Source: Acidobacteriota bacterium (GTDB lineage: Bacteria; Acidobacteriota; Thermoanaerobaculia; Thermoanaerobaculales; Sulfomarinibacteraceae). From it: a stretch of DNA of 58,336 nt. This document shows positions 10,141 to 22,853 of this stretch, one piece after another. The translations under genes were made by a program, and so were the position numbers. Every line of letters starts with the position of its first letter. Within the stretch, counting starts at the first letter, position 1. Location of the stretch: the NCBI GenBank assembly GCA_013152925.1, contig JAADFK010000224.1:1-58336 (forward strand), in the 5' to 3' direction. The notes under the pieces were generated by a model. It did not search any database. It had not been told where the DNA came from and saw only the letters and a list, made by a program, of their open reading frames with translations.

Positions 10141-10527
10141 ATGGCCGACCCCCGCCACCGCCGGGGACGCCGCGGCGAGCTGGCCGCCCTCATCCTGCTC
10201 CTGCTCAAGGGGTACCGTCCCCTCCACCGCAACTGGTCCGGCGGAGGCGGCGAGCTGGACCTGGTGGTCGCCCGCGGCCGGACCATCGTCTTCGTCGAGG
10301 TCAAGACCCGCTCGAGCCCGGCCTTCGGGGGCGGCGCCGCGGCCGTCGGCCCCGCCAAACGCCGCCACCTGGCCCGTGCCGCCACCGCCTACCTCAGCCG
10401 CTTCGCCCTCTGGGAACGCCCCACACGTTTCGACGTCATCACCGTCGAGGGCCACGGCCGCTTCCCGTGGATCGCCATCCGCCACCTCAAGGGCGCCTTC
10501 CGCCCCGACCTCGGCCGGAGGGTCTGA
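10141..10527 (+). CDS. yraN: YraN family (UPF0102) endonuclease-like protein
   Basis: GRRGE, RNW..GELDLV, FVEVKTR and RFDVI. Confidence 0.9.
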   Translation: MADPRHRRGRRGELAALILLLLKGYRPLHRNWSGGGGELDLVVARGRTIVFVEVKTRSSPAFGGGAAAVGPAKRRHLARAATAYLSRFALWERPTRFDVITVEGHGRFPWIAIRHLKGAFRPDLGRRV

Positions 10528-10735
10528 GGGGCCGGGGTTGTGGCCGTTTTCGAAACGTGTGAAGACGATTCGCGTTCCATCCGGAGAGAGGGCCGGGTTC
10601 TGTTCGCTGGCCGGTGCCGCCGGTGCGCGCAGCCGCACCGCCCCGTCGGCCCGGACGACCGTCCTGTCCGCCGTCAACCCGGACGAGGCCGTGGCCGCGA
10701 CGGCGGCGAGCACGTTGGCCAACGTGGTCCGGTGA
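10528..10735 (-). pseudogene. Fragment of a TolB/PD40-repeat protein
   Basis: One PD40 repeat, SEQNPALSPDGTRIVFTRFENG, after a signal-like segment. The frame then runs antisense into yraN. Confidence 0.55.
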
Positions 10736-10897
10736 AAACTCCGCACTGGGATTCCCGGTATATTCCACATGCCACATGCCGTCATGCCGTGCTGGACCAC
10801 GGCCACCGGCGCAGGCCTCCTCATCGCCGCCGGCCCGGAGGTGAAACCCGGGTCCGTGCAATCCGTACCACGCCCCCATGGACGGCAGGAGGTGATC

Positions 10898-11644
10898 GTG
10901 CGGCGAATCTGTTGGGCCATGGTGGCCGTGACACTGGCGGCGGGGGCCGTGGGGGCTCAGACACCGCCGGTGGCGGTCCTCGAACGCCTCCAGTCCGCGA
11001 TCAACCCCGAGGACGACGCCTTCACCGGCTCGTGGCGAATGACAACCTTCTCCGTCGTTGAAAAACCCAACGGGAAAGCGCACCACGAGGCCACCATGGA
11101 GATGAGCTGTTCCAGGGACGCCCGGGGACGGCTCCACCGCCAGGTGATCCGCTTCATCAAGGACGGCACGGACGAGACGAAGAAGATCCGGGCACGCCTC
11201 GAGAAGCAGGAAGCCGAAGGCGAAGCCGGCCGGAAGAAGAAGAACGGCAGGAAGAAGAAGGAACAAGAAGCAGACGTCGTCCCTCCCGATCCGGAGCACC
11301 GGGATCTCTACGTCTTCGAACCGCTCCCGCCGGAGGACGGAGCCGCGCGCTGCGTCTTCCGTCCCGCACCCGGTCACGCGAAGGACCGCGGCCTCCTGAC
11401 CGGCGAGCTCGCCTGGGACCCCAGGACCCTGGATCCACTGTGGATCGAGGGTGAGCTGTCACACCCCCCGGGTCCGCTCAAGGAGATGCACCTGCGAATC
11501 GAGCTCCGCCGGAACGGCGATCTCCTCTACACCTCCCGCATGGTCACAGGCGGCCTTGCCAGGATCCTCCTGCTCAAGCGCCGATTCCACGCCGACGTCC
11601 GCTTCGAAGACGTCGAACCCGCGGCACCGGCAGCCGGCGATTGA
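10898..11644 (+). CDS. Secreted hypothetical protein (possible LolA/MucB-like beta fold)
   Basis: SD GGAGG before GTG at 10898. Signal peptide ending AVGA-Q. Beta-rich C-terminal half with GELAWDP. Confidence 0.65.
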   Translation: MRRICWAMVAVTLAAGAVGAQTPPVAVLERLQSAINPEDDAFTGSWRMTTFSVVEKPNGKAHHEATMEMSCSRDARGRLHRQVIRFIKDGTDETKKIRARLEKQEAEGEAGRKKKNGRKKKEQEADVVPPDPEHRDLYVFEPLPPEDGAARCVFRPAPGHAKDRGLLTGELAWDPRTLDPLWIEGELSHPPGPLKEMHLRIELRRNGDLLYTSRMVTGGLARILLLKRRFHADVRFEDVEPAAPAAGD

Positions 11645-11774
11645 CCACGGGCATTGGCTCCCGCCCCACACTTCTTCCCTGGCGTTCCTGGCACTCTTGG
11701 CGGAAGACTCTCGTCCCTCCCGAGCCCGGAGGGGGCACGGCGCCGTTCGGGGGCTCGTGGCAGCCGGCCTGTGC

Positions 11775-11932
11775 TAACCTCCGGGGGCGGGAACAACGTG
11801 GGCGGAACAGGGCCGTCCGGGGGACCTCGCCGTGCCGCTGGCCGGTGGCGGCCCTCGAGCCCGGGCGGACGGGTCGCGGCCCCAGCCTTCGGGAAATCGG
11901 CCCCGAAGGTGTTCCGCTCCCGAAGGAGGCGC
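11775..11932 (+). promoter_or_regulatory. Putative extended -10 promoter and structured 5' leader of the xdh operon (riboswitch candidate)
   Basis: TGcTAACCT with the hexamer at 11775-11780. Stems 11800-11809/11910-11919, 11813-11819/11866-11872 and 11886-11893/11902-11909. Alternative pairing 11886-11894/11918-11926 overlaps the SD. Confidence 0.35.
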
Positions 11933-13363
11933 ATGTCCGAGGGAGGTATCCGGCTGATCCTCAACGGTGAGGCCGTCACGGCGTCCATGGCGCCGGGCGG
12001 GGTTGTGCTCGACTTCCTGCGCCGGGAACGGGGCCTCAGGGGGACCAAGGAGGGGTGCCGCGAGGGAGATTGCGGCGCCTGCACGGTGCTGCTCGGAGAA
12101 CGCGCGGGCTCGGGCATGCGCTACCGCGCCGTGGCCTCCTGCCTGCTCCCGGTCGCCGAGCTGGCGGGGCGGCACCTGGTGAGCATCGAGGGCCTCGACG
12201 GAGAGAGGCTCTCCGCCATCCAGAGGGCCATCGTGGAGGAGGGCGCCACCCAGTGCGGTTTCTGCACGCCGGGCCTCGTGGTGGCGCTGACGGGGTTTCT
12301 GCTGACGAGCCCCGGCCTGGGCGAGGAGGATGCCATGGAGGCCATCGACGGCAACATCTGCCGCTGCACGGGCTACGCCTCCATCCGGAGGGCCGTCCGG
12401 CGCCTCGTGGACGGCCTGGAGCTCGAGCCCGGGGCCCTGGAGACGCGGCACGAGGCCCTGGCGGCGGCCGGCTTGCTGCCGCCCCTGTTCGCCGGTATCG
12501 CCGCGCGGCTGGATGCCCTCGAGCACGCACCCGCGAGTGCCGACGCCGGAGGCATCCCCGTGGCCGGCGGCACCGACCTCTTCGTCGTGGAGGCCGCGCG
12601 GCTTCGGAAGGAACGGCTGCGCCTGCTGTCGCGGGAGCGGCGGGGCGAGCCCGTCTCCGAGGAGGGGAATCTCATCGTCCTCGACGCCGCCTCCACCATG
12701 GAGGAGCTCCGGCAGAGCCCGCTCCTCGAGGCCTGCTTCCCCTCGTGGAGGCGGTTCCTGGGCCTCCATTCCTCGACGCTGATCCGCAACCGGGCGACGC
12801 CGGCGGGCAACATCGCCCACGCCTCGCCCATCGGCGACATGTCCGTCGTCCTGCTGGCCCTGGACGCCCGGCTCCAGATCGGGCGGGACGGCGAACGGGC
12901 CCGTACCGTGGCGCTCGACCGCTTCTTCCTGGGCTACAAGGAGACCGATCTCGCCCCCGGCGAGCTCATCACGCGCATCCTCGTGCCGCGGCCGGCGCCG
13001 GCCAGCCGCTTCAACTTCGAGAAGGTCTCGCGCCGCCAGCACCTGGACATCGCCTCGGTCAACACGGCCTTCTCCTGCACCGTGGAGGACGGCGCCATCG
13101 GCACGGCGCGGCTCTCCGCGGGCGGCGTCGCCCCCATCCCGCTGTACCTGGCGGAAAGCTCCGCCTGGCTGAGCGGACGCCCGGTCTCCGTTGCAACGGC
13201 CCTGGGGGCCGCGGAGCGTGCGGCCGCAGAGATCACGCCCATCTCCGACGTCCGGGGCTCAGCGGACTACAAGCGCCGGCTGCTGCGGCGCCTCGTGCTG
13301 GCCCATTTCGTCACCTGCTTCCCCGGGCTCCCGCAGGAGGAGATCGCCCATGCCATCGCCTGA
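11933..13363 (+). CDS. xdhA: Xanthine dehydrogenase small subunit (2Fe-2S/FAD)
   Basis: GTKEGCREGDCGAC, QCGFCTPG, GNICRCTGY, AGGTDL, IRNRAT and PISDVRGS. Confidence 0.93.
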   Translation: MSEGGIRLILNGEAVTASMAPGGVVLDFLRRERGLRGTKEGCREGDCGACTVLLGERAGSGMRYRAVASCLLPVAELAGRHLVSIEGLDGERLSAIQRAIVEEGATQCGFCTPGLVVALTGFLLTSPGLGEEDAMEAIDGNICRCTGYASIRRAVRRLVDGLELEPGALETRHEALAAAGLLPPLFAGIAARLDALEHAPASADAGGIPVAGGTDLFVVEAARLRKERLRLLSRERRGEPVSEEGNLIVLDAASTMEELRQSPLLEACFPSWRRFLGLHSSTLIRNRATPAGNIAHASPIGDMSVVLLALDARLQIGRDGERARTVALDRFFLGYKETDLAPGELITRILVPRPAPASRFNFEKVSRRQHLDIASVNTAFSCTVEDGAIGTARLSAGGVAPIPLYLAESSAWLSGRPVSVATALGAAERAAAEITPISDVRGSADYKRRLLRRLVLAHFVTCFPGLPQEEIAHAIA

Positions 13364-15632
13364 TGCCGTGGCCCACGTGCGGGCCCGCTCACCCTTCGTG
13401 GACGACCTCCCCGAGCCCGAAGGGACGCTGCACGGCGCCGTGCTGCCCTCCCCCGTTGCCCACGGCCGGATCCTGCGGCTGGACACGGCCCCGGCCCTCG
13501 CCATGCCGGGCGTCGCCGCCGTGCTCACCGCGGCGGACGTCCCCGGCGAGAACCAGATCGGCGGCATCGTCCAGGACGAGGCCCTCCTGGCCCAGGGCGA
13601 GGTCCACCACGTGGGACAGCCCGTGGCCCTGGTGGTGGCAGCCACTCCCCGGCAGGCCCGCGCGGCCCGCGACCTCATCGCCCTCGAGATCGAGGAGCTC
13701 GAGGCCGTCTTCGACCCGCGGCGCGCCGCCGAGCGGGGCAAGCTCATCGCGCCGGCCCGCACCATCGCGTGCGGTGACGTGGACGAAGCCTGGGCGCGCT
13801 GCGCCACCATCGTCGAGGGCCGCGCGGATTCCGGCGCCCAGGAGCACCTCTACCTTGAAACCCAGGCCTGCCTGGCCGTCCCCGAGGCGCGGGGCCGGCT
13901 CCATCTCTTCCCGGCCACCCAGTCCCCCAGCGGCGTGCAGCGCATCACGGCACGGGTTCTGGGCCTCCAGATGCACGACATCGAGGTGGAGGTCCAGCGT
14001 CTGGGCGGCGCCTTCGGCGGCAAGGAGGACCAGGCCACACCGTGGGCGGTGATGGCAGCCCTGGCCGCGCACCGGCTGGCGCGGCCCGTCAAGATCGTGC
14101 TCGGCCGGGGCGAGGACATGCGGATGACGGGCAAGCGCCACCCCTACTCCACCGACTTCCGGCTGGGCCTCGACGGCGAGGGCCGCTTCCTGGCCTTTGA
14201 AGCCACCTACTACCAGAGCTCTGGCGCGGCCGCCGACCTCTCCACGGCCATCCTTCAGCGCACCCTGTTCCACGCCACCAACGCCTACTTCGTCCCCAAC
14301 GTCCGGGTCACCGGTTTCTGCTGCCGGACCAACCTGCCGCCCTTCACGGCCTTTCGCGGCTTCGGCGGACCCCAGGCCATGTTCGTCATGGAGTCGGCCA
14401 TCGCCGCTGCCGCCGAGCGCCTGGGCCGTCCCGCCCGGGAGCTCCAGGAGCTCAACCTGCTCCGCGAGAACGATCCCCTGCCCTACGGCATGCGCGTCCG
14501 ACGGGCCAACGCCCGCCGCAGCTTCGCCGAGGCCGTGGAACGTTTCGGCCTCGGGCGGCGGCTCCGCGAGATCGAGGAGCACAACGCCGCCTCCCCGCTT
14601 CTCAAGCGCGGCCTGGCTCTCATGCCGGTTTGCTTCGGCATCTCCTTCACCAATGCCTCCCTCAACCAGGCCGGCGCCCTGGTGCACATCTACACCGACG
14701 GCAGCGTCAGCCTCAGCACGGCCGCCGTGGAGATGGGCCAGGGCGTGGCCACCAAGATCCGGCGCATCGCCGCCGGAGCGCTCGGGATCTCCGAGAGACG
14801 GATCCGCGTGGAGAGCACGAGCACTTCGCGGGTGGCCAACATGTCGCCCACCGCCGCCAGCACCGCCACGGATTTGAACGGCATGGCGGCGCTCCTCGCC
14901 TGCCGGATGCTGGCCAGCAGGCTCCGGACCTCGGCGGCGGAGCTCCTCGATGTGCGCGCCGAGGATCTCGAGCTGCGCGGCGAGCGGGTCCTCCTCTCGG
15001 GCGAGGTGACCGATCTTGGCTGGAACGAGCTCGTGGCCGCAACGTGGAAACGCCGGGTGGACCTGACAGCCCACGCCTTCTACTCCACGCCGAACCTCCA
15101 CTTCGATCCCGAGGAGGGGAGGGGCCGGCCATTCGCCTACCACGTCTTCGGCACGGCCATGGTGGAAGCCACGGTGGACCTGCTCCGGGGCACGGCCACG
15201 GTCGACGCCGTCCACGTGGTCCACGACGCGGGCCGCAGCCTCGACCCGCTGGTGGATCGTGGCCAGGCGGAAGGTGGCATCGTTCAGGGCCTGGGCTGGA
15301 TGACCATGGAGGATCTCGTCCACGCCGAGGACGGGCGCCTCCTCTCGGACTCCCTGGCGACCTACAAGATCCCCGACCTGCACTTCACTCCAACGGCCCT
15401 GGAGGTGGTCTTTCTCGAAGACGCCGCCAACCCCGCGGCCGTCCTCCAGACCAAGGCCATCGGCGAGCCGCCCTTCATGTATGGCATCGGCGCGTTCTTC
15501 GCCATCCGCAACGCCATCTGCGCCGCGCGTCCCCTGGCCGTGGACCGTTTCGTCGCCCCCCTGACCAACGAGCGGATCCTCGGGATGTTGGATGGGAAGC
15601 GTGAAGAGCAAGGAGCGAGGAGTGAGGAGTGA
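13350..15632 (+). CDS. xdhB: Xanthine dehydrogenase molybdopterin-binding subunit
   Basis: QEHLYLETQ, GGAFGGKE, TGKRH, AFRGFGGPQ, EMGQG and KAIGEPP (catalytic Glu). Confidence 0.95.
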   Translation: MPSPDAVAHVRARSPFVDDLPEPEGTLHGAVLPSPVAHGRILRLDTAPALAMPGVAAVLTAADVPGENQIGGIVQDEALLAQGEVHHVGQPVALVVAATPRQARAARDLIALEIEELEAVFDPRRAAERGKLIAPARTIACGDVDEAWARCATIVEGRADSGAQEHLYLETQACLAVPEARGRLHLFPATQSPSGVQRITARVLGLQMHDIEVEVQRLGGAFGGKEDQATPWAVMAALAAHRLARPVKIVLGRGEDMRMTGKRHPYSTDFRLGLDGEGRFLAFEATYYQSSGAAADLSTAILQRTLFHATNAYFVPNVRVTGFCCRTNLPPFTAFRGFGGPQAMFVMESAIAAAAERLGRPARELQELNLLRENDPLPYGMRVRRANARRSFAEAVERFGLGRRLREIEEHNAASPLLKRGLALMPVCFGISFTNASLNQAGALVHIYTDGSVSLSTAAVEMGQGVATKIRRIAAGALGISERRIRVESTSTSRVANMSPTAASTATDLNGMAALLACRMLASRLRTSAAELLDVRAEDLELRGERVLLSGEVTDLGWNELVAATWKRRVDLTAHAFYSTPNLHFDPEEGRGRPFAYHVFGTAMVEATVDLLRGTATVDAVHVVHDAGRSLDPLVDRGQAEGGIVQGLGWMTMEDLVHAEDGRLLSDSLATYKIPDLHFTPTALEVVFLEDAANPAAVLQTKAIGEPPFMYGIGAFFAIRNAICAARPLAVDRFVAPLTNERILGMLDGKREEQGARSEE

Positions 15633-15637
15633 GGAGA
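15603..15637 (+). repeat. Degenerate purine-rich heptamer tandem repeat (GAGGAGT-like x5)
   Basis: GAAGAGC AAGGAGC GAGGAGT GAGGAGT GAGGAGA, spanning the xdhB stop codon. Confidence 0.6.
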
Positions 15638-15800
15638 CCGTGGGGCCGGGGCGTGCGTGGAAGCCGCATGGCTTCCCCCGCCGTCCCATCCCGCTGAGCC
15701 CCCCCCGGGGAGCGCGGGCTTGGGCCCGCGCCTTCGGCTGGGGCTCCCAGGTGCGAACCGGGGTCCGCGCTCCGGATGGGGCCCGGCGGCGGATACGGCC

Positions 15801-16301
15801 GTGAAGCTGCGTCTCGAACGGCGGGACGTCCTCAACGGCGCCCTCATCTACGCCGCGGGCGACACCGTGGCGGCGGCGATCCTCGGCCAGCTCAGCGCGA
15901 CGCGCCTGGCCGGCATGATGCTCGTGGGCGCCACGGTCTACGCCTTCGAGATCCCCAACTACTTCCGGTGGATCGACCGGCGGACGGAGGGGATGCCCCG
16001 CGGATGGCGTTTCGCGGCGGCCCGCACGGGCCTGGCCCTCCTCTACTTCAACCCACTGTGGATCGCCCGTCACCTGCTCTTCATCGCCGTCTTTTCCGGC
16101 CGGTGGGAGACGGCCGGCTGGGGACTGCTCCACACGGCGCTCCTGTCCTGGCTCTTCAACATCCCGCTCTCGGCCATCGGCAATTACATCATCCAGGTAT
16201 GGCTGTCCTTCCGCTGGCGCTTCGTGGGGAGCGCCGTCTTCTCCGGACTGATGGCGGTCTACTATGCTCTCTCGGGGGTGTGGTTCCATGCGGGAGACTG
16301 A
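15801..16301 (+). CDS. Mpv17/PMP22 family 4-TM membrane protein
   Basis: Segments match MPV17 by eye: GALIYAAGDTVA, RLAGMMLVG, YFRWIDR, FNPLW, GNY..FRWR and MAVYYALS. About 166 aa from a GTG start. Confidence 0.8.
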   Translation: MKLRLERRDVLNGALIYAAGDTVAAAILGQLSATRLAGMMLVGATVYAFEIPNYFRWIDRRTEGMPRGWRFAAARTGLALLYFNPLWIARHLLFIAVFSGRWETAGWGLLHTALLSWLFNIPLSAIGNYIIQVWLSFRWRFVGSAVFSGLMAVYYALSGVWFHAGD

Positions 16302-17291
16302 GCTGTGGAAAGCGGCCGCCGCCTCCGTCGAGGCGGGGAAGGCGGTCTGCCTGATCGTCATGGTGCATGCCACGGGACACGGACCCAACCGGCCCGGAGC
16401 CAAGATGACCGTCACCGCCGGCGGGGACCGCCGCGGCACCGTCGGCGGCGGGGCGGCCGAACGCTCGCTGTTCCACGCCGCCGAATCGGCCCTGGCCGAT
16501 GGCGATCCTCCCCCGCCGCGAGCTCTCACCCTCGAGCACCATGGCGATTCCGGACCCCGTGCCTCCGGCATGATCTGCTCCGGCACCCAGACCTTCGTGC
16601 TCCTGCGCCTGGCGGAGCGCGACCTGCCGGCGCTCCGCGCACTGGCCGGAGCCCACGCCGAGGGCCGCCCGGGCTGCCTGGAGATCACCCCGGCGGGCCT
16701 CGATTTCACCGCCGGTGCCACCTGCGAACAAAGCTGGGACGGCACCGCCGGCCGATGGCGCTACCGGGAGCCCGCCGGCTGCCGCATCACCGTCACCCTC
16801 GTCGGCGGTGGCCACGTGGCCCTGGCCCTGACCCCCCTCCTGGTGCGCCTGGGCTTCCACACCGTCGTCCTGGACGACCGCCCCGGCCTGGACACCCTCG
16901 AGGCCAACACCCTGGCGGACGAACGAAGAACCGTCGATTACGCCCGCATCCGCGAGCACGTTCCTCCAGGCCCCACGAGCTACGTTTGCATCATGACCCA
17001 CGGCCACCGTCACGACGAGCAGCTCCTGGAGAAGCTCCTCGGCCACCCCCTGGGCTATCTCGGCATGATGGGCAGCCCCCCCAAGGTCGCGGCCATCCGC
17101 GGAAACCTCCTCGCCCGCGGCGTCCCCCCGACGCCGTCCACGCCCCAATCGGCCTACCCATCGGCAGCAACACCCCCGAAGAGATTGCCGTCGCCATCGC
17201 CGCCGAGCTGATCGCCGTCCGGAACGGCGCGATCGCTGCCGGCGGCATCGATGCCATCCATGGGAGATCTCGATCTTTTACCCTGACGTGA
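16288..17291 (+). pseudogene. xdhC: XdhC/CoxI Moco insertion chaperone, frameshifted near 17130 (real or assembly error)
   Basis: GAKM, GTVGGG, GMICSG, VGGGHVA, MTHGHRHD and YLGMMGS lie in one frame. The conserved tail VHAPIGLPIGSNTPEEIAVAIAAELI lies in another frame that ends at 17291. Confidence 0.85.
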
Positions 17292-17360
17292 CGGTGGAGA
17301 CCGAGCCGTGACCCTCTTTGGGGCGGACTGCCGTATCATCCTCCCGTTTGGGGGTGCGCG

Positions 17361-18668
17361 GTGGAACGCATTGGCGTTGTCGGTGTTAGCTACCGGACCA
17401 CGAAGGTGGACAGCTTGGCCGCGGCGGCCCTGCCGCCGGAGACCGGTGCCAGCGAGCTTGGGGAGCTGGCACGGCTGGCCGGGTTTTCCGAGATGGTCTA
17501 CCTGGCCACATGTAACCGGGTGGAGTTCTACTTCCGCGCCCAGGCCGGGAACCACGACGAGTCGATCCTCTTCCACCTGCGCCGGACCATCGCCGACCTG
17601 ACGGGTGGCACCAGCCAGCTGCCCTGCGAGGACGAGCTGTACCTGCTCCGGGGCATGGACGCCGCCCGTCACCTCTTCCGCGTGACGGCGGCCCTGGACT
17701 CCATGATGGTCGGGGAGGCCCAGATCGCCGGCCAGGTCAAGAAGGCCCACGAGACGGCCCACGAGGCCGGCATCCTGGGCGGGCTCCTGGACCAGACCTT
17801 TCACGAGAGCTTCCACCTGGCCAAGCGGATCCGGAACGAGACGGAGCTGACCCTGCGGCCGGTCTCCCTGGTCACACTGGTCCAGCGGAAGATGGAGTCC
17901 CACCTTGCAGCATCTTCCGCCGCCGTTCTCATCCTCGGTGCCGGGGAGATGGCCGGGCAATGCCTCCGGATGGTCCGTTCCATCGACGCCGGACGCCACG
18001 TGCTCGTGGGCAACAGGACACCGGAGCGCGCCGCGGAGCTCGTGCACGGGGACCCCATGGCCTGGAGCCTCCCGCTGGATTCGGTCGCCCTGGAGCCCCC
18101 CGTGGCGGGCCTCGTCCTGGCCGCCACCTCGGCCGAGGAGCCGATCCTGGACCCCGGCCAGGTGGAGGCGATCCGCCGGGGGCTCCCCGCCGACGAGCCC
18201 CTGCTGATCGTCGACCTGGCCCTGCCGCCCAACGTGGACCCCGGAGCACGTTCGCTGGACGGTGTCGAGCTCGTGGGCATCGAGGAGATGCGCGAGGAGG
18301 CCGAGGCCAACCGGGAGCGGCGTCTGGCGGAGATGGAACGCTGCGAGGAGCTGGTGGACCACCAGCTCGTCATCCTGCGGCGCCGGGTCCTGGACCGCTC
18401 TCTCTCCCCCGTGGCCCGCAACCTCCACAGCAGTTTCGACGACCTGGCCCGGCGTGCCGTGGAGCAGACCATGAATCACGATCTGGCCCATCTACCCCCC
18501 GAGGACCGGGAGACCGTCGAGCGGATGACCCGCACGCTGGTCAAGCGCCTGGTCCAGGTCCCCCTGCGCGGCCTCAAGGGCGCTGCCTGGGAGCACTCGG
18601 CCTCCGTGCTGGACAGCTTCCTGCGAGGTCTCGACGGCGTCAAGGCCGGGCATGGGGAGGCCTCATGA
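17361..18668 (+). CDS. hemA: Glutamyl-tRNA reductase
   Basis: LATCNRVEFY, LDSMMVGEAQIAGQVK, GAGEMA and DLALP. Confidence 0.95.
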   Translation: MERIGVVGVSYRTTKVDSLAAAALPPETGASELGELARLAGFSEMVYLATCNRVEFYFRAQAGNHDESILFHLRRTIADLTGGTSQLPCEDELYLLRGMDAARHLFRVTAALDSMMVGEAQIAGQVKKAHETAHEAGILGGLLDQTFHESFHLAKRIRNETELTLRPVSLVTLVQRKMESHLAASSAAVLILGAGEMAGQCLRMVRSIDAGRHVLVGNRTPERAAELVHGDPMAWSLPLDSVALEPPVAGLVLAATSAEEPILDPGQVEAIRRGLPADEPLLIVDLALPPNVDPGARSLDGVELVGIEEMREEAEANRERRLAEMERCEELVDHQLVILRRRVLDRSLSPVARNLHSSFDDLARRAVEQTMNHDLAHLPPEDRETVERMTRTLVKRLVQVPLRGLKGAAWEHSASVLDSFLRGLDGVKAGHGEAS

Positions 18669-19615
18669 CGACACCCGCGCCTCCTCTCCGCATCGGCACC
18701 CGGGGCTCCGACCTGGCGCTGTGGCAAGCCCGCCGCGTCGCCGGCCTCATCGAGGGGCGCCTGGAACGGGCCGCCGAGCTCGTAGTCATCACCACCAAGG
18801 GCGACCGCGTCCAGAACGTCTCCTTCCACAAGATGGAGGGCAAGGGTTTCTTCACCAAGGAGCTCCAGCAAGCGCTCCTGGACGAGCGGGTGGACCTGGT
18901 CGTCCACTCCCTCAAGGATCTTCCCACCGAGGAGCCGGAGGGACTGGACGTCGTGGCCGTTCCCGAACGCACCACGGCCGCCGACCTCCTGATTGCCCGG
19001 AAGGACCTCCTCCAGCCGACGCCCGCCAGGCCGCTGGGCCTCCCCGAGGGGTCCCGCCTGGGAACCTCCTCCCTGCGCCGCGCCGCTCAGGCCCTGGCCC
19101 TGCAGCCGGACCTCCGGGTCCGGGCGCTCCGGGGCAACGTGCCCACCCGTATCCGCAAGCTCCGGGAGGGGCTCTACGACGCCATCCTGCTGGCTGCGGC
19201 CGGCGTCGGCCGGCTCGAGCTTGACATGGAGGGTCTCGACCTCCAGGAGCTGCCACCCGAGGTCATGCTCCCCGCGCCGGGGCAGGGCGCCCTGGCCATC
19301 GAGGCACGGATCGGAGACCCCCGGACCGGTGATCTCGCCGTGCTACACGATGCCGGGGCCGCCCGGCTGGTCCACGCGGAACGTCACCTTCTGGGCCTGC
19401 TCGGGGGCGGCTGCCACCTCCCGCTGGGCTGCCTGGCCACGGCCGAGGAGGACGGCGCCGTACGCCTCCAGGCGGTGCTCGGCGCCGTGGACGAGGCCAT
19501 CACCCGGGCCGTTGTCACCCGCGTGGCCGCCGTGGCGCCCCAGCCCGAAGCGGCCGCCCGAGCCTGCCAGCGGGCCATCGAGCTGGCCGAGCCCTCCCTG
19601 GATCCGGCACCATGA
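18665..19615 (+). CDS. hemC: Hydroxymethylbilane synthase
   Basis: IGTRGSDLALWQA, KGFFTKE, VHSLKD, GTSSLRR, RGNVPTR and GGGCHLP. Confidence 0.96.
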   Translation: MTTPAPPLRIGTRGSDLALWQARRVAGLIEGRLERAAELVVITTKGDRVQNVSFHKMEGKGFFTKELQQALLDERVDLVVHSLKDLPTEEPEGLDVVAVPERTTAADLLIARKDLLQPTPARPLGLPEGSRLGTSSLRRAAQALALQPDLRVRALRGNVPTRIRKLREGLYDAILLAAAGVGRLELDMEGLDLQELPPEVMLPAPGQGALAIEARIGDPRTGDLAVLHDAGAARLVHAERHLLGLLGGGCHLPLGCLATAEEDGAVRLQAVLGAVDEAITRAVVTRVAAVAPQPEAAARACQRAIELAEPSLDPAP

Positions 19616-20346
19616 GCCGCCGCGTCCTGGTGACCCGGACGGCCGAGGACTGCCGCCGTCTGCAGGAGCTCGTGGCGGACCACGGCATCGTCATCGAGCC
19701 CTACCCCGTGCTCCGCTTCGAAGCCGTGGAATCCGAGGCAGCCTGGAGTGAGGCGGTGGAGGCAGAGGCCTCCGGCCGGGAGCGGGGGGTGGAGCGGTGG
19801 TTGTTGCTGGCCTCGCCTCGCGCCGTACAACCGTTCCGCGACCAGGCGATCCACCATCATGGCGGGCGCCTCCTGGAGCTGCCCGCCGCCGCCGTTGGGC
19901 GGACCACCGCGCGGGAGGCGGCTCAGGCCGGCCTCCGGGTGGAGCTGACCGGAGCGGGGACCGGGGCGGCGTTGGCCCAGGAGCTTCTCGGACGCCTGCA
20001 AGAGCCGGCGCTCTTCCTCTTCCCCTGCGGCGCCGACCGCCGCCGTGAGCTGCCCGGGGCGCTCCGCGAAGCTGGTCACACTGTCCACGAGATCGAGGTC
20101 TACCGGATGCGCCGCATGCCGCCGGCGGATCTGCCAGCCCCCGCCGCCGAGATCGACGTCGTGGTGCTGACCTCGCCGCGCTCGGCCCGCTATTATGTGG
20201 AGAACCTCGGAGGCCGTCCCCTCGACTGCCTCCACATCGCCCTGGGACCGGCCACGCGCAACGCCGCCCGGTCCATGGGAATCCAGTGCCGCATCCCGGC
20301 CCGGCCGGAGATGGAGGCCCTTGCGGAGGAGCTATGCACGATCTGA
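19612..20346 (+). CDS. hemD: Uroporphyrinogen-III synthase
   Basis: VLVTRT, AVGRTTA, EVYR, LTSPRS and ALGPAT. Operon position supports the call. Confidence 0.88.
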   Translation: MSRRVLVTRTAEDCRRLQELVADHGIVIEPYPVLRFEAVESEAAWSEAVEAEASGRERGVERWLLLASPRAVQPFRDQAIHHHGGRLLELPAAAVGRTTAREAAQAGLRVELTGAGTGAALAQELLGRLQEPALFLFPCGADRRRELPGALREAGHTVHEIEVYRMRRMPPADLPAPAAEIDVVVLTSPRSARYYVENLGGRPLDCLHIALGPATRNAARSMGIQCRIPARPEMEALAEELCTI

Positions 20347-21317
20347 CCAGCCGTCCCAGGAGGTTGCGGACGACGTCCGCCATCCGCGACCTGGTGGCCG
20401 AGGCCCGCCTCGACCGCCGCATGTTCGTCCAACCCCACTTCGTCGTCCCCGGCGCGGGGATCTCGGAGCCCATCGAGGCCATGCCCGGCATCGAGCACCA
20501 GTCCGTGGACCGTCTCGTGGAGACCGTGGCCGCCGACCTGGAGCTCGGCATCCGGGCGGTGCTGCTCTTCGGAATCCCCGAGGAGGAGGCCAAGGCGTCC
20601 GACGGGCGGGCGGCCTACTCCGGCGACGCCGTGGTACCGGCCGCCATCAGCGCCCTCAAGGGTCGTTTCGGCGAGGGGCTGGCCGTCATGACGGACGTCT
20701 GTCTCTGCGCCTACACGGACCATGGCCACTGCGGCCTCGTACGGAACGGCCGCATCGACAACGACGCCACACTGCCCCACCTGGCCCGCATGGCCCTGGC
20801 CCACGCCCGGGCGGGTGCCGACGTTGTGGCCCCCTCGGACATGATGGACGGCCGGATCGGCGCCATCCGGGAGGCCCTGGACGACGACGGTTTCGCGGAG
20901 ACGGCCATCATGTCGTACTCGGTCAAGTACGCCTCCGCGTACTACGGTCCCTTCCGTGAAGCGGCCCACTCGGCGCCGGCCCAGGGGGATCGCCGCTCCT
21001 ACCAGATGGATGCCAGGAACCGCCGCGAGGCGGTGCTCGAGGCCGGCCTCGACGTGGACGAGGGCGCCGATATCCTGATGGTCAAGCCCGCCCTGGCCTA
21101 CCTGGACGTGGTGGCCGATATCCGGGAGAGCTTTCCCCAGCCGCTGGCCGTCTACAACGTCTCCGGCGAGTTCTCCATGGTCAAGGCCGCCGCCGCCCGC
21201 GGCTGGGTGGACGAGCGGGCCCTGGTGCTGGAGAACTGGCACGCCTTCCGGCGCGCCGGCGCCGACATCATCATCACCTACCACGCCCGCCAGGCCTTCG
21301 CGGAGGACTGGTTGTGA
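20334..21317 (+). CDS. hemB: Porphobilinogen synthase (Zn-type)
   Basis: RPRRLR, DVCLCAYTDHGHC, APSDMMDGR, YGPFREA and MVKP. Confidence 0.97.
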   Translation: MHDLTSRPRRLRTTSAIRDLVAEARLDRRMFVQPHFVVPGAGISEPIEAMPGIEHQSVDRLVETVAADLELGIRAVLLFGIPEEEAKASDGRAAYSGDAVVPAAISALKGRFGEGLAVMTDVCLCAYTDHGHCGLVRNGRIDNDATLPHLARMALAHARAGADVVAPSDMMDGRIGAIREALDDDGFAETAIMSYSVKYASAYYGPFREAAHSAPAQGDRRSYQMDARNRREAVLEAGLDVDEGADILMVKPALAYLDVVADIRESFPQPLAVYNVSGEFSMVKAAAARGWVDERALVLENWHAFRRAGADIIITYHARQAFAEDWL

Positions 21318-21420
21318 GGGGTGAGGAGAGACAGGATCGACGATAGAGGTTGTTGGAGGTGGGGGTGAAGAGTGAGGGGATGGTAGAAAGAGGAGAGAGG
21401 ATCAAGGTATGAGAGTCTGG
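21316..21420 (+). repeat. Purine-rich degenerate heptamer tract between hemB and hemL
   Basis: GAGGGGT GAGGAGA ... GAAGAGT GAGGGAT ... GAGGAGA GAGGATC AAGGTAT. Nearly C-free in a GC-rich context. Confidence 0.45.
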
Positions 21421-21539
21421 GACGGAGGCGCCGGCGGTGCGAAGATGTGGGCTCCGGGCCGGCCCGGAGGGGCCGTGAGGCTTCGGAGGCGGGCGTCCGG
21501 TCGCGGCCAGGGCGTCTCGGAGATCGGGAGAGGTTCAAG

Positions 21540-22853
21540 ATGAGCGCAGGACCACGTTCGCAGGAGCTGTACCGGGAGGCCTGCCGGCTGATGCCGGCCG
21601 GGGTCAACTCCCCCGTCCGCGCCTTTCACAGCGTGGGCGGTGAGCCCATCTTCCACGCCTCGGCGGCGGGCTGTCGTATCACGGACGTGGACGGCCGCAG
21701 CTACATCGACTACGTGGGCTCCTGGGGCCCGCTGATCCTCGGGCACGCCCACCCGGCCGTCGTCGAGGCCGTGGCCTCCGCGGCGGCACGCGGATTGAGC
21801 TTCGGCGCCCCCTGCGAAGCCGAGATCGAGCTGGCCCGGTTGCTCGCGGAGACCGTCGATCACCTGGAGATGGTGCGCTTCGTCTCCTCGGGCACCGAGG
21901 CCGTCATGTCCGCCGTCCGCCTGGCCCGGGGCGTCACGGGCCGGGACGACGTTCTCAAGTTCAGCGGCTGCTACCACGGCCACGCCGACCACCTGCTGGT
22001 CTCGGCGGGCTCGGGTCTCGCCACCTTCGGCAGGCCATCGTCGGCCGGGGTTCCTGCCGCCTTCGCCGGCCATACCCTCGTTCTTCCGCTGGACGACGAC
22101 ACAGCCCTGGAACGGCTCTTCGCCGAGCGGGGCGATCGCCTGGCCGCGGTCCTCATGGAGGGCATCCCGGCCAACGCCGGCCTCCTCGTTCAGCGGCAGG
22201 GCTATCTCCGGCGCCTGCGGGAGCTCTGCACGGAACACGGGGTCCTGCTGATCCTCGACGAGGTCATCACCGGCTTCCGGCTCGGCCCCGGCGGCGCCGC
22301 CGGGCTCTACGGCATCACCCCGGACCTGGCCACCTACGGCAAGATCATCGGTGGCGGCCTGCCCGTGGGCGCCTACGGCGGGAGCCGTCGGCTCATGGAG
22401 CAGCTGGCGCCGCTCGGTCCCGTCTACCAGGCCGGCACCCTCTCGGGCAACCCCGTGGCCATGGCCGCCGGCGCCGCGACGCTTCACGAGCTCCTGGACG
22501 ACGGCGGCTCGGCCTGGGAGCGTCTCGAACGGACGGCCGGCCGCCTCCAGCAGGGTCTCGGCGCTGCCTTTCACGATGCGGGGCTCCCCTTCTCCATCGC
22601 CCGTGCGGGCTCCATCCTCTGGCTCTCCCTGCAGGAGGGGCCGCCACCGCGCCGTTTCGAGGACATCGACGACGACGCCGCGGAGCGTTACGCGGCGCTT
22701 CACTCGGCGCTCTTGGACGAGGGCGTCTACCTGGCCCCGTCGGCCTACGAGGTCATGTTCGTCTCCACCGTGCACGACGAGGCCGACATCGACGAGACCG
22801 TCGCCGCCTTCGGCCGGGCGCTGGCGCGGGTGGGCGGAGAGATGCGCCCATGA
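21540..22853 (+). CDS. hemL: Glutamate-1-semialdehyde 2,1-aminomutase
   Basis: GVNSPVRAF, SGTEA, GCYHGH, DEVITGFR, GKIIGGGLP and YQAGTLSGNP. Confidence 0.97.
   Translation: MSAGPRSQELYREACRLMPAGVNSPVRAFHSVGGEPIFHASAAGCRITDVDGRSYIDYVGSWGPLILGHAHPAVVEAVASAAARGLSFGAPCEAEIELARLLAETVDHLEMVRFVSSGTEAVMSAVRLARGVTGRDDVLKFSGCYHGHADHLLVSAGSGLATFGRPSSAGVPAAFAGHTLVLPLDDDTALERLFAERGDRLAAVLMEGIPANAGLLVQRQGYLRRLRELCTEHGVLLILDEVITGFRLGPGGAAGLYGITPDLATYGKIIGGGLPVGAYGGSRRLMEQLAPLGPVYQAGTLSGNPVAMAAGAATLHELLDDGGSAWERLERTAGRLQQGLGAAFHDAGLPFSIARAGSILWLSLQEGPPPRRFEDIDDDAAERYAALHSALLDEGVYLAPSAYEVMFVSTVHDEADIDETVAAFGRALARVGGEMRP

Follow-up and report, generated by a model that had tools for sequence, protein, structure and literature searches.

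A bacterial membrane protein family with a predicted Mpv17/PMP22-like fold, encoded next to xdhB in xanthine dehydrogenase operons

We describe here a small membrane protein encoded inside a xanthine dehydrogenase (XDH) operon of an Acidobacteriota bacterium, on contig JAADFK010000224.1 of the assembly GCA_013152925.1. The stretch analysed, positions 1 to 58,336 of this contig and hereafter called the window, has a G+C content of about 70%. The gene in question is a 166-codon open reading frame (ORF), named X166, which opens with GTG, closes with TGA and stands third in the plus-strand order xdhA, xdhB, X166, xdhC (Table 1); an identical protein is present as predicted protein P0001 in a large protein collection. 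Judged by its predicted structure, X166 represents a bacterial and enzyme-coupled form of the Mpv17/PMP22 fold that is new, unannotated and yet widespread, and among the genomes compared below its presence marks an XDH operon in an organism that has no recognisable urate degradation or classical nucleobase permease. We tentatively favour the reading that X166 is a dedicated XDH-coupled conduit for purine bases or urate, and most likely an exit for urate, whereby we infer its transport activity, substrate, direction and oligomeric state.

A sequence-only reading of this DNA had placed an ORF between xdhB and xdhC and had it overlap the start of the latter. The ORF coordinates and the Pfam domains of the flanking genes bear this out, the 3' end of X166 covering 38 nt of xdhC if translation of that gene begins at its first ATG, or 14 nt if it begins at the alternative one. 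A scan of species-representative genomes returned 439 confirmed X166 loci, from which 80 were kept, and all neighbour counts refer to these 80. With the window's proteins as tblastn queries, XdhB was detected at 75 loci, XdhA at 67 and a relative of XdhC at 59. At 67 loci XdhB ended within 400 nt upstream of X166 on the same strand (median gap 29 nt), and at six others it lay 400-700 nt away; XdhC followed X166 directly at 34 loci and was not adjacent at 46. The loci linked to xdhB come from Thermoanaerobaculia, Verrucomicrobia, Victivallales, Lentisphaerae, Aegiribacteria, Fermentibacteria, Rhodothermales and many families of Bacteroidota, and the closest relative among them (84% identity) is from Thermoanaerobaculia. 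Five loci were without XdhB, two of which (L002 and L036) end at a contig edge 114-324 nt upstream, while the remaining three (L039, L040 and L054) truly lack it. Among 401 evenly sampled Bacteroidota genomes, six were found to have X166, and every one of the six copies adjoins XdhB. Clustering of neighbouring ORFs placed a CDA-fold deaminase, read as a candidate guanine deaminase-like enzyme, just upstream of xdhA at 34 loci, and a purine nucleoside phosphorylase at 16.

The sequence-only reading had proposed an undescribed xdhAB-mpv17-xdhC module and had asked whether homologues are enriched beside xdh or purine catabolic genes. Because adjacency to XdhB is near-total and purine genes recur nearby, we regard the module as real and conserved. 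It is also undescribed as far as literature searches go: full-text searches gave no publication linking Mpv17/PMP22 or bacterial homologues with xanthine dehydrogenase operons, and no description of an xdhB- or xdhC-linked membrane protein in connection with urate.

The cluster had further been said to contain no NCS2 or xanthine permease and no uricase. This can be extended to the source assembly as a whole (95.85% complete), in which no NCS2 protein (PF00860), uricase (PF01014), HIUase (PF00576) or OHCU decarboxylase (PF09349) was found. An XdhB at least 50% identical to that of the window is encoded in 34 of the 401 Bacteroidota genomes, of which just six carry X166. Twenty of the X166-less genomes served as the comparison set (G016, G064, G131, G143, G195, G243, G267 and G269 were left out), and the set with X166 comprised 38 genomes, namely the window's own, seven from an earlier analysis and 30 chosen by hand in favour of isolates and non-Bacteroidota. 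HIUase was present in 3/38 genomes with X166 and in 11/20 without it; OHCU decarboxylase was present in 2/38 and in the same 11 of the 20. Strong NCS2 matches occurred in 2/38 genomes with X166, besides three matches of 26-31 bits in frames of 621-625 aa, and in the other nine of the 20 genomes without it, one of them at 39 bits; the background for NCS2 in Bacteroidota is 143/401 genomes. At least one of the three markers was therefore found in 4/38 genomes with X166 as against 20/20 without (Fisher p of about 6e-12, uncorrected for phylogeny).

The likeness to Mpv17/PMP22 comes from predicted folds and from a protein language model. An AlphaFold2 model of X166 built on a 43-row alignment is all-helical (pLDDT 89.9, pTM 0.83), and a Foldseek search of BFVD with this model ranked first a "Putative Mpv17/PMP22 family protein [Tetraselmis virus 1]" (E = 9.4e-3, probability 1.00), with template-modelling (TM) scores of 0.67/0.75 and a root-mean-square deviation of 3.5 over 152 columns. 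The second rank was taken by the unnamed protein M1I2L4 (TM 0.56/0.62), and the third had already fallen to E = 1.0 and TM 0.36. When the distant family member P0220 was modelled with its own alignment (pLDDT 93.0), the same two targets came out on top, with TM 0.53/0.62 for the Tetraselmis virus 1 protein and 0.59/0.68 for the other, followed by TM 0.17 at rank 3; from rank 3 downwards TM was at most 0.38 for both query models. A structure search of the PDB returned nothing similar to the X166 model. In the ESM Atlas, the named clusters at ranks 1-25 were all PF04117, the Pfam family of Mpv17/PMP22, with leading scores of 0.88, 0.83 and 0.83 and 199, 182 and 180 shared features; by the rule of the tool, a score below 0.9 counts as a lead only. 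These clusters include eukaryotic ones in which 89% and 95% of the members have the domain, and the cluster scoring 0.88 is mostly bacterial, with PF04117 in 27% of its members. The sequence-only reading had counted a lack of both profile and structural similarity to Mpv17 against itself: the structural similarity is there, with the same top Foldseek matches for two models, and the Pfam, HMMER and hhalign comparisons made here recovered no relationship. We consider X166 to be probably a remote homologue of Mpv17, while by its sequence it falls outside PF04117 as that family is defined.

The model comprises helices at residues 7-27, 33-62, 69-82/85-98, 108-119/121-134 and 137-161, that is, seven helices that make up five hydrophobic segments, two of which are kinked at conserved N-P positions; two of the five could be re-entrant rather than spanning. 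Lysine plus arginine counts are 2 for residues 1-6, 0 for the loop 28-32, 5 for 56-70, 1 for 99-107, 2 for 135-140 and 0 for the C-terminus. Hydropathy and the positive-inside rule together predict five membrane segments with the N-terminus inside and the C-terminus outside, so that the four transmembrane segments counted earlier were obtained neither from the model nor from hydropathy.

X166 itself has no Pfam match at E ≤ 1 and no meaningful match to an NCBIfam model. Homologues were nevertheless numerous in the large protein collection, where 1154 of 2462 candidate proteins reached E ≤ 0.01. The 120 listed homologues are 152-208 aa long and 52-100% identical to X166, none has a Pfam domain, their titles span several phyla, across which identity is 52-88%, and wherever the source gives a name they are called hypothetical, apart from one UniRef label, "LysE type translocator". 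A HMMER profile of 43 members, run exhaustively against 1.84 billion representatives at 50% identity, reached just 112 proteins at E ≤ 0.001, which indicates that the family is compact and sharply bounded. Across 43 diverse members 31 of about 166 columns are invariant, and a widened alignment shows no or almost no variation at D21, Y47, E50, F55, P85, W87, R90, H91, Q132 and R140. The polar residues among these (D21, E50, R90, H91, Q132 and R140) are buried, as expected of a binding site or a selective pore. A distant subgroup (P0209, P0220, P0221, P0224, P0225, P0229 and P0230; E = 4e-9 to 5e-4 against the family profile) has an extra N-terminal helix, and most of its members have long N-terminal extensions resembling targeting or low-complexity sequence. 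The family comprises more than 1000 clusters at 90% identity that are without annotation and without a Pfam or NCBIfam model. It is a standard component of the XDH operons of marine Flavobacteriaceae and is found in such operons of several further phyla as well.

Proteins of the Mpv17/PMP22 family are about 170-200 aa long with four transmembrane helices, and mutations in MPV17 cause a mitochondrial DNA depletion disease. Experiments link the family to solute channels: one member, Pxmp2, forms a diffusion channel of 1.4 nm (PMC2662417). A 2025 review (PMC12493167) states that MPV17 oligomers may show channel-like activity, that the substrate is unsettled and transporter activity unproven, and that genetics ties the family to nucleotide pools; a proposed dTMP role is summarised in PMC7050145, and the zebrafish iridophore link of mpv17 is touched on in PMC3711038. 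X166 resembles the members MPV17, PXMP2, yeast Sym1 and the viral proteins in being a small all-helical bundle (166 aa, compared with 144-147 aa for the viral members matched) whose predicted fold agrees over nearly the whole length. It differs in being bacterial and located in the cytoplasmic membrane rather than in an organelle, in escaping recognition by PF04117, HMMER and hhalign, in the five hydrophobic segments of its predicted structure as against the four transmembrane helices of the family, in its own set of strongly conserved polar residues, and in its fixed place within an enzyme operon.

According to the reading that we favour, X166 would be a small inner-membrane accessory of a Rhodobacter-type, FAD-containing XDH, co-transcribed and co-translated right after xdhB and before xdhC where the latter is adjacent. 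Probably assembled into an oligomer, as its eukaryotic relatives are, it would form a selective path for a solute across the cytoplasmic membrane, and that solute would be the purine base handled by XDH. In the scheme proposed, the cells would strip purines of their amino groups by means of the deaminase, the nucleoside phosphorylase and XDH and oxidise the ring as far as urate, gaining ammonia and reduced cofactor; in cells unable to break the ring, urate would be a dead end that must leave, and X166 may be its way out. The case for such an exit draws on translation together with XdhB, on a channel-family fold and on the buried conserved polar residues, and the gene-content contrast adds support to the earlier suggestion that X166 may import (hypo)xanthine or export urate, import being an alternative or additional direction. 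The path is expected to be selective or gated, since a wide pore of the Pxmp2 type would not be tolerable in an energised bacterial membrane.

If this is how X166 works, the organisms concerned would follow a lifestyle in which purines are oxidised to urate only, which would bear on the cross-feeding of nitrogen and urate both at sea and in sediments. If the family is also truly related to MPV17, its near-obligate coupling to XDH, an enzyme of known chemistry, would leave purine bases and urate as the candidate solutes, and X166 would offer a cheap bacterial test bed for what the Mpv17/PMP22 family conducts. A bolder extension, which we think doubtful, is that the fold is an ancient conduit for purine bases or urate, with selective XDH-coupled channels as its bacterial members and with mitochondrial MPV17 and peroxisomal PXMP2 as heirs to a permeability related to nucleobases or urate; were it true, it would account for the phenotypes seen in nucleotide pools, iridophores and urate and supply the long-missing substrate of the family.

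A number of results count against an Mpv17-related purine conduit. None of the sequence methods applied connects the X166 family to Mpv17/PMP22: PF04117 (gathering score 27 bits) has no match to X166 at E ≤ 1, none of the ten proteins scanned from the tail of the 112-protein HMMER set has it at E ≤ 0.1, and sub-threshold matches appear in only 2/48 members (best E = 0.011) and in 1/124 (E = 0.029). Unrelated families of small membrane proteins are commoner in the latter set (GhoT_OrtT in 13 and DUF2818 in 12), and an hhalign comparison of X166 with a thin, PF04117-positive bacterial family of three sequences gave probabilities of 1.2% and 3.6%. The fold evidence consists of two viral predicted structures, and the alignments behind the two query models overlap in part. 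A wide, non-selective pore like that of Pxmp2 would collapse the bacterial proton gradient, hence the mechanism of the eukaryotic protein can hardly carry over unchanged. As to function, three loci carry X166 with no xdhAB nearby, and 28 of the 34 close XdhB orthologues in the Bacteroidota sample work without it. Phylogeny confounds the gene-content contrast, as most genomes with X166 are Flavobacteriaceae; 30 of the 38 were hand-picked, and the many metagenome-assembled genomes (MAGs) are incomplete. The contrast also points to an XDH that works without urate catabolism more clearly than it points to a transporter. The sister operons in NCS2-bearing genomes, moreover, look like a second mode of urate degradation and not like a like-for-like swap.

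Further observations concern PF04117. The source genome contains no match to the model anywhere at E ≤ 10, and the likeness to "MPV17/PXMP2 motifs" reported earlier was not reproduced with it, the resemblance residing in predicted fold and language-model features; a presumed likeness to MPV17 in the order of small conserved motifs in X166, and in the N-terminal helix that marks the longer subgroup, is given no weight. Counting weak Pfam matches was rejected as a homology test, being non-specific (other families reach up to 13/124 as compared with 1/124 for PF04117), and matches to PF04117 in three other X166 genomes were discarded as chance-level, one that shared the coordinates of the gene being on another contig. 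Separately, the PF04117-positive bacterial family used for hhalign is founded on a 217-aa membrane protein of a Bacteroidota genome (G347; L089, 1027-1680) that scores at the 27-bit cut-off and is the sole such match in the 401 genomes, with just three relatives in a collection of 5.8 billion proteins.

The likeness in fold may also be convergent, in which case X166 would be an unrelated helical bundle of five segments and its link with xdh would say nothing about the eukaryotic family. This possibility is about ancestry and cuts across the functional readings. It is favoured by the failure or non-specificity of all sequence-level tests, by Foldseek E-values of only about 1e-2 at 14-17% identity, and by the fact that middling structural matches are common for small helical membrane bundles. 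The two top BFVD targets, however, stand far above the background (TM 0.53-0.75 vs at most 0.38) and recur for the distant member P0220, and an independent method yields PF04117 for 25 of the 25 nearest named Atlas clusters, with 180-199 shared features, as well as a mostly bacterial cluster at 0.88 in which 27% of the members have the domain. We hold convergence to be unlikely.

With regard to function, the main rival is that X166 conducts no solute but binds XdhB and anchors XDH at the inner face of the membrane, for localisation or for electron hand-off to a membrane acceptor, in the manner of the anchor subunits of other Mo enzymes. Its position immediately after the gene of the catalytic subunit (at the median gap given above) and ahead of a chaperone gene is what such a role would predict, and an order of catalytic subunit, membrane protein and chaperone resembles operons of the narGHJI type. 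Two ORFs even run from XdhB into X166: P0235 (928 aa, from a KSB1 MAG, found in a search confined to long proteins) joins a full XdhB through a short linker to X166 in one frame, and P0122 (248 aa, from the representative set) joins the C-terminus of XdhB to X166. Such a fusion would agree with the cytoplasmic N-terminus predicted for X166, and the most conserved exposed stretch of X166 is on the cytoplasmic side. Each of the two ORFs is nevertheless a singleton from a single contig; no fusion was seen at any of 73 genome loci, and the reading frame is shared at only 19/73, under the third expected by chance. Only one histidine of X166 is invariant, no motif for haem, quinone or Fe-S clusters can be recognised in it, and XdhA retains its own FAD domain as an exit for electrons; 28/34 close XdhB orthologues dispense with X166, and anchoring would leave the absence of urate catabolism in X166 genomes unexplained. 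Complex prediction for XdhB (760 aa, 36-row alignment) and X166 (43-row) gave no answer (score 0.00), which counts neither for nor against binding. On balance we judge a pure anchor to be rather improbable, although anchoring and conduction are compatible and an enzyme-docked channel would satisfy both. Still less credible, and in our view very improbable, is a maturation or protection factor that moves no purines and helps to assemble or protect XDH, by recruiting XdhC, by cofactor supply or by limiting damage from flavin-derived reactive oxygen. X166 does adjoin xdhC at 34/80 loci and overlaps it in the window, and Flavobacteriaceae have a divergent XdhC-like gene about 2 kb away, together with NTPase_1 and an unannotated membrane protein; yet its tight partner is xdhB and not xdhC, which is non-adjacent at 46/80, most close XDH orthologues mature without X166, and its sequence gives no sign of cofactor binding.

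A conserved fusion of XdhB to X166 through read-through or selenocysteine was also considered and rejected, as none of the 19 shared frames is open. The shared frame of the window, which is interrupted by one TGA, is for the same reason probably a chance product of G+C-rich DNA. A third composite protein, P0236 (426 aa), unites the N-terminal part of a phosphoglucomutase with a partial X166 and is a singleton on one contig.

The best NCBIfam model for XdhA is TIGR02963 (xanthine_xdhA), at 320.5 bits against a cut-off of 467, and that for XdhB is TIGR02965, at 762 bits against 849.5; with both subunits below the equivalog cut-offs, the XDH of the window belongs to a somewhat divergent clade. 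XdhC likewise matches models of the XdhC family only below their cut-offs. The nearest solved relative of XdhB is chain B of Rhodobacter capsulatus XDH (1jro_B, E = 9.3e-154), bovine XDH is also close, and aldehyde oxidases score about 100 bits lower than 1jro_B. Purine hydroxylases are distinguished by a catalytic Glu, Arg and Glu, which are E232, R310 and E730 in the R. capsulatus enzyme; the XdhB residues aligned to them, with the numbering fixed by the E232Q entry 2w55_B, are all conserved, and judged by these residues XdhB carries a xanthine-type active site. The window's genes share with R. capsulatus xdhABC the subunit split, the domains and the XdhC chaperone. To our knowledge, no gene for a membrane protein separates xdhB from xdhC in the classical R. 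capsulatus operon.

Table 1. Features of the xdh operon in the window (positions are those of the whole stretch)
Feature	Position	Strand	Description
xdhA	11933..13363	+	476 aa; ATG at 11933 preceded by GAAGGAGG; XDH small subunit with two 2Fe-2S domains and an FAD domain (Pfam Fer2, Fer2_2, FAD_binding_5, CO_deh_flav_C)
xdhB	13350..15632	+	760 aa; molybdopterin subunit with an a/b-hammerhead domain and two molybdopterin-binding domains (Pfam Ald_Xan_dh_C, MoCoBD_1, MoCoBD_2); first 14 nt shared with the end of xdhA
spacer xdhB-X166	15633..15800	+	168 nt; the xdhB stop, a single TGA at 15630, is followed by 56 stop-free codons in the same frame
X166	15801..16301	+	166 aa; predicted membrane protein of Mpv17/PMP22 fold with five hydrophobic segments and an N-terminus predicted to be cytoplasmic
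xdhC	16264..17211	+	315 aa from ATG 16264, alternative ATG 16288; chaperone for molybdenum cofactor insertion (Pfam XdhC_CoxI, XdhC_C)

A search of positions 10500-17600 against Rfam gave no match at E ≤ 1. Directly after xdhC, the window carries a putative tetrapyrrole (haem) biosynthesis run of hemA, hemC, hemD, hemB and hemL at 17361-22853, as read from the translations.

Operons of the same XDH clade in the 20 genomes without X166 take three forms. The first is xdhA-xdhB-xdhC alone; in the second, xdhAB is followed by allantoinase-like, allantoicase and PuuD-type Urate_ox_N genes and a fused OHCU-decarboxylase/HIUase; and in the third, either xdhABC is followed by a 1096-aa Fer4_20/Pyr_redox_2 protein or genes for a PALP enzyme and an amidohydrolase come after xdhAB. 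We presume the third form to be akin to the anaerobic urate cluster of gut bacteria. When loci L090-L109, from Bacteroidota genomes with a close XdhB but no X166, are set beside the X166 loci, the clade is seen in three nearly exclusive settings: with a set for aerobic uricolysis, with YgfK-like, PALP and amidohydrolase genes and an NCS2 permease encoded at some other place in the genome, or with X166.

Two other kinds of membrane protein associated with purine breakdown can be compared with X166. The NCS2 nucleobase permeases (PF00860), proton symporters that include xanthine and uric acid permeases, are the transporter family usual in purine catabolism. X166 is considered solely as a functional analogue of them, as there is no relation in sequence or fold and NCS2 proteins are about 440 aa long; the sister operons that go with NCS2 also carry extra catabolic genes, and the permeases are not proven substitutes for X166. 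The PuuD-type membrane urate oxidase (Urate_ox_N, PF06181) is, like X166, a membrane protein encoded beside the same XDH clade (Bacteroidota loci L103 and L105), but it belongs to an unrelated family and is accompanied by HIUase, OHCU decarboxylase, allantoinase and allantoicase, which are lacking in the X166 genomes.

Several arrangements around individual loci are worth recording. At two Bacteroidota loci (L015 and L028) X166 is upstream of xdhA instead of downstream of xdhB. At the locus of a gammaproteobacterial MAG (L040), which has no xdhAB nearby, the convergent neighbour of X166 is an adenine deaminase. In Flavobacteriaceae, X166 is convergent with a trio that consists of NTPase_1 (163 aa), a membrane protein and a divergent XdhC-like gene, as at L007 (10463-12821, minus strand) and at 22-23 other loci, and the trio is kept at the Winogradskyella locus L054, where X166 occurs without xdhAB. 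The membrane protein of the trio is 334-338 aa long, has no Pfam match and constitutes a second unannotated membrane protein tied to XDH; a 510-aa relative of it (34% identity) is encoded upstream of xdhA in a genome that has no X166 (L104, 3770-5302). Downstream genes for CMD-family, radical-SAM/DUF3641, DUF2064, rhodanese and methyltransferase proteins recur in many loci of this family (for example L007, 12907-15056, and L013, 16611-19625), a combination that we take to be reminiscent of arsenosugar or selenium-related clusters and probably unrelated to XDH.

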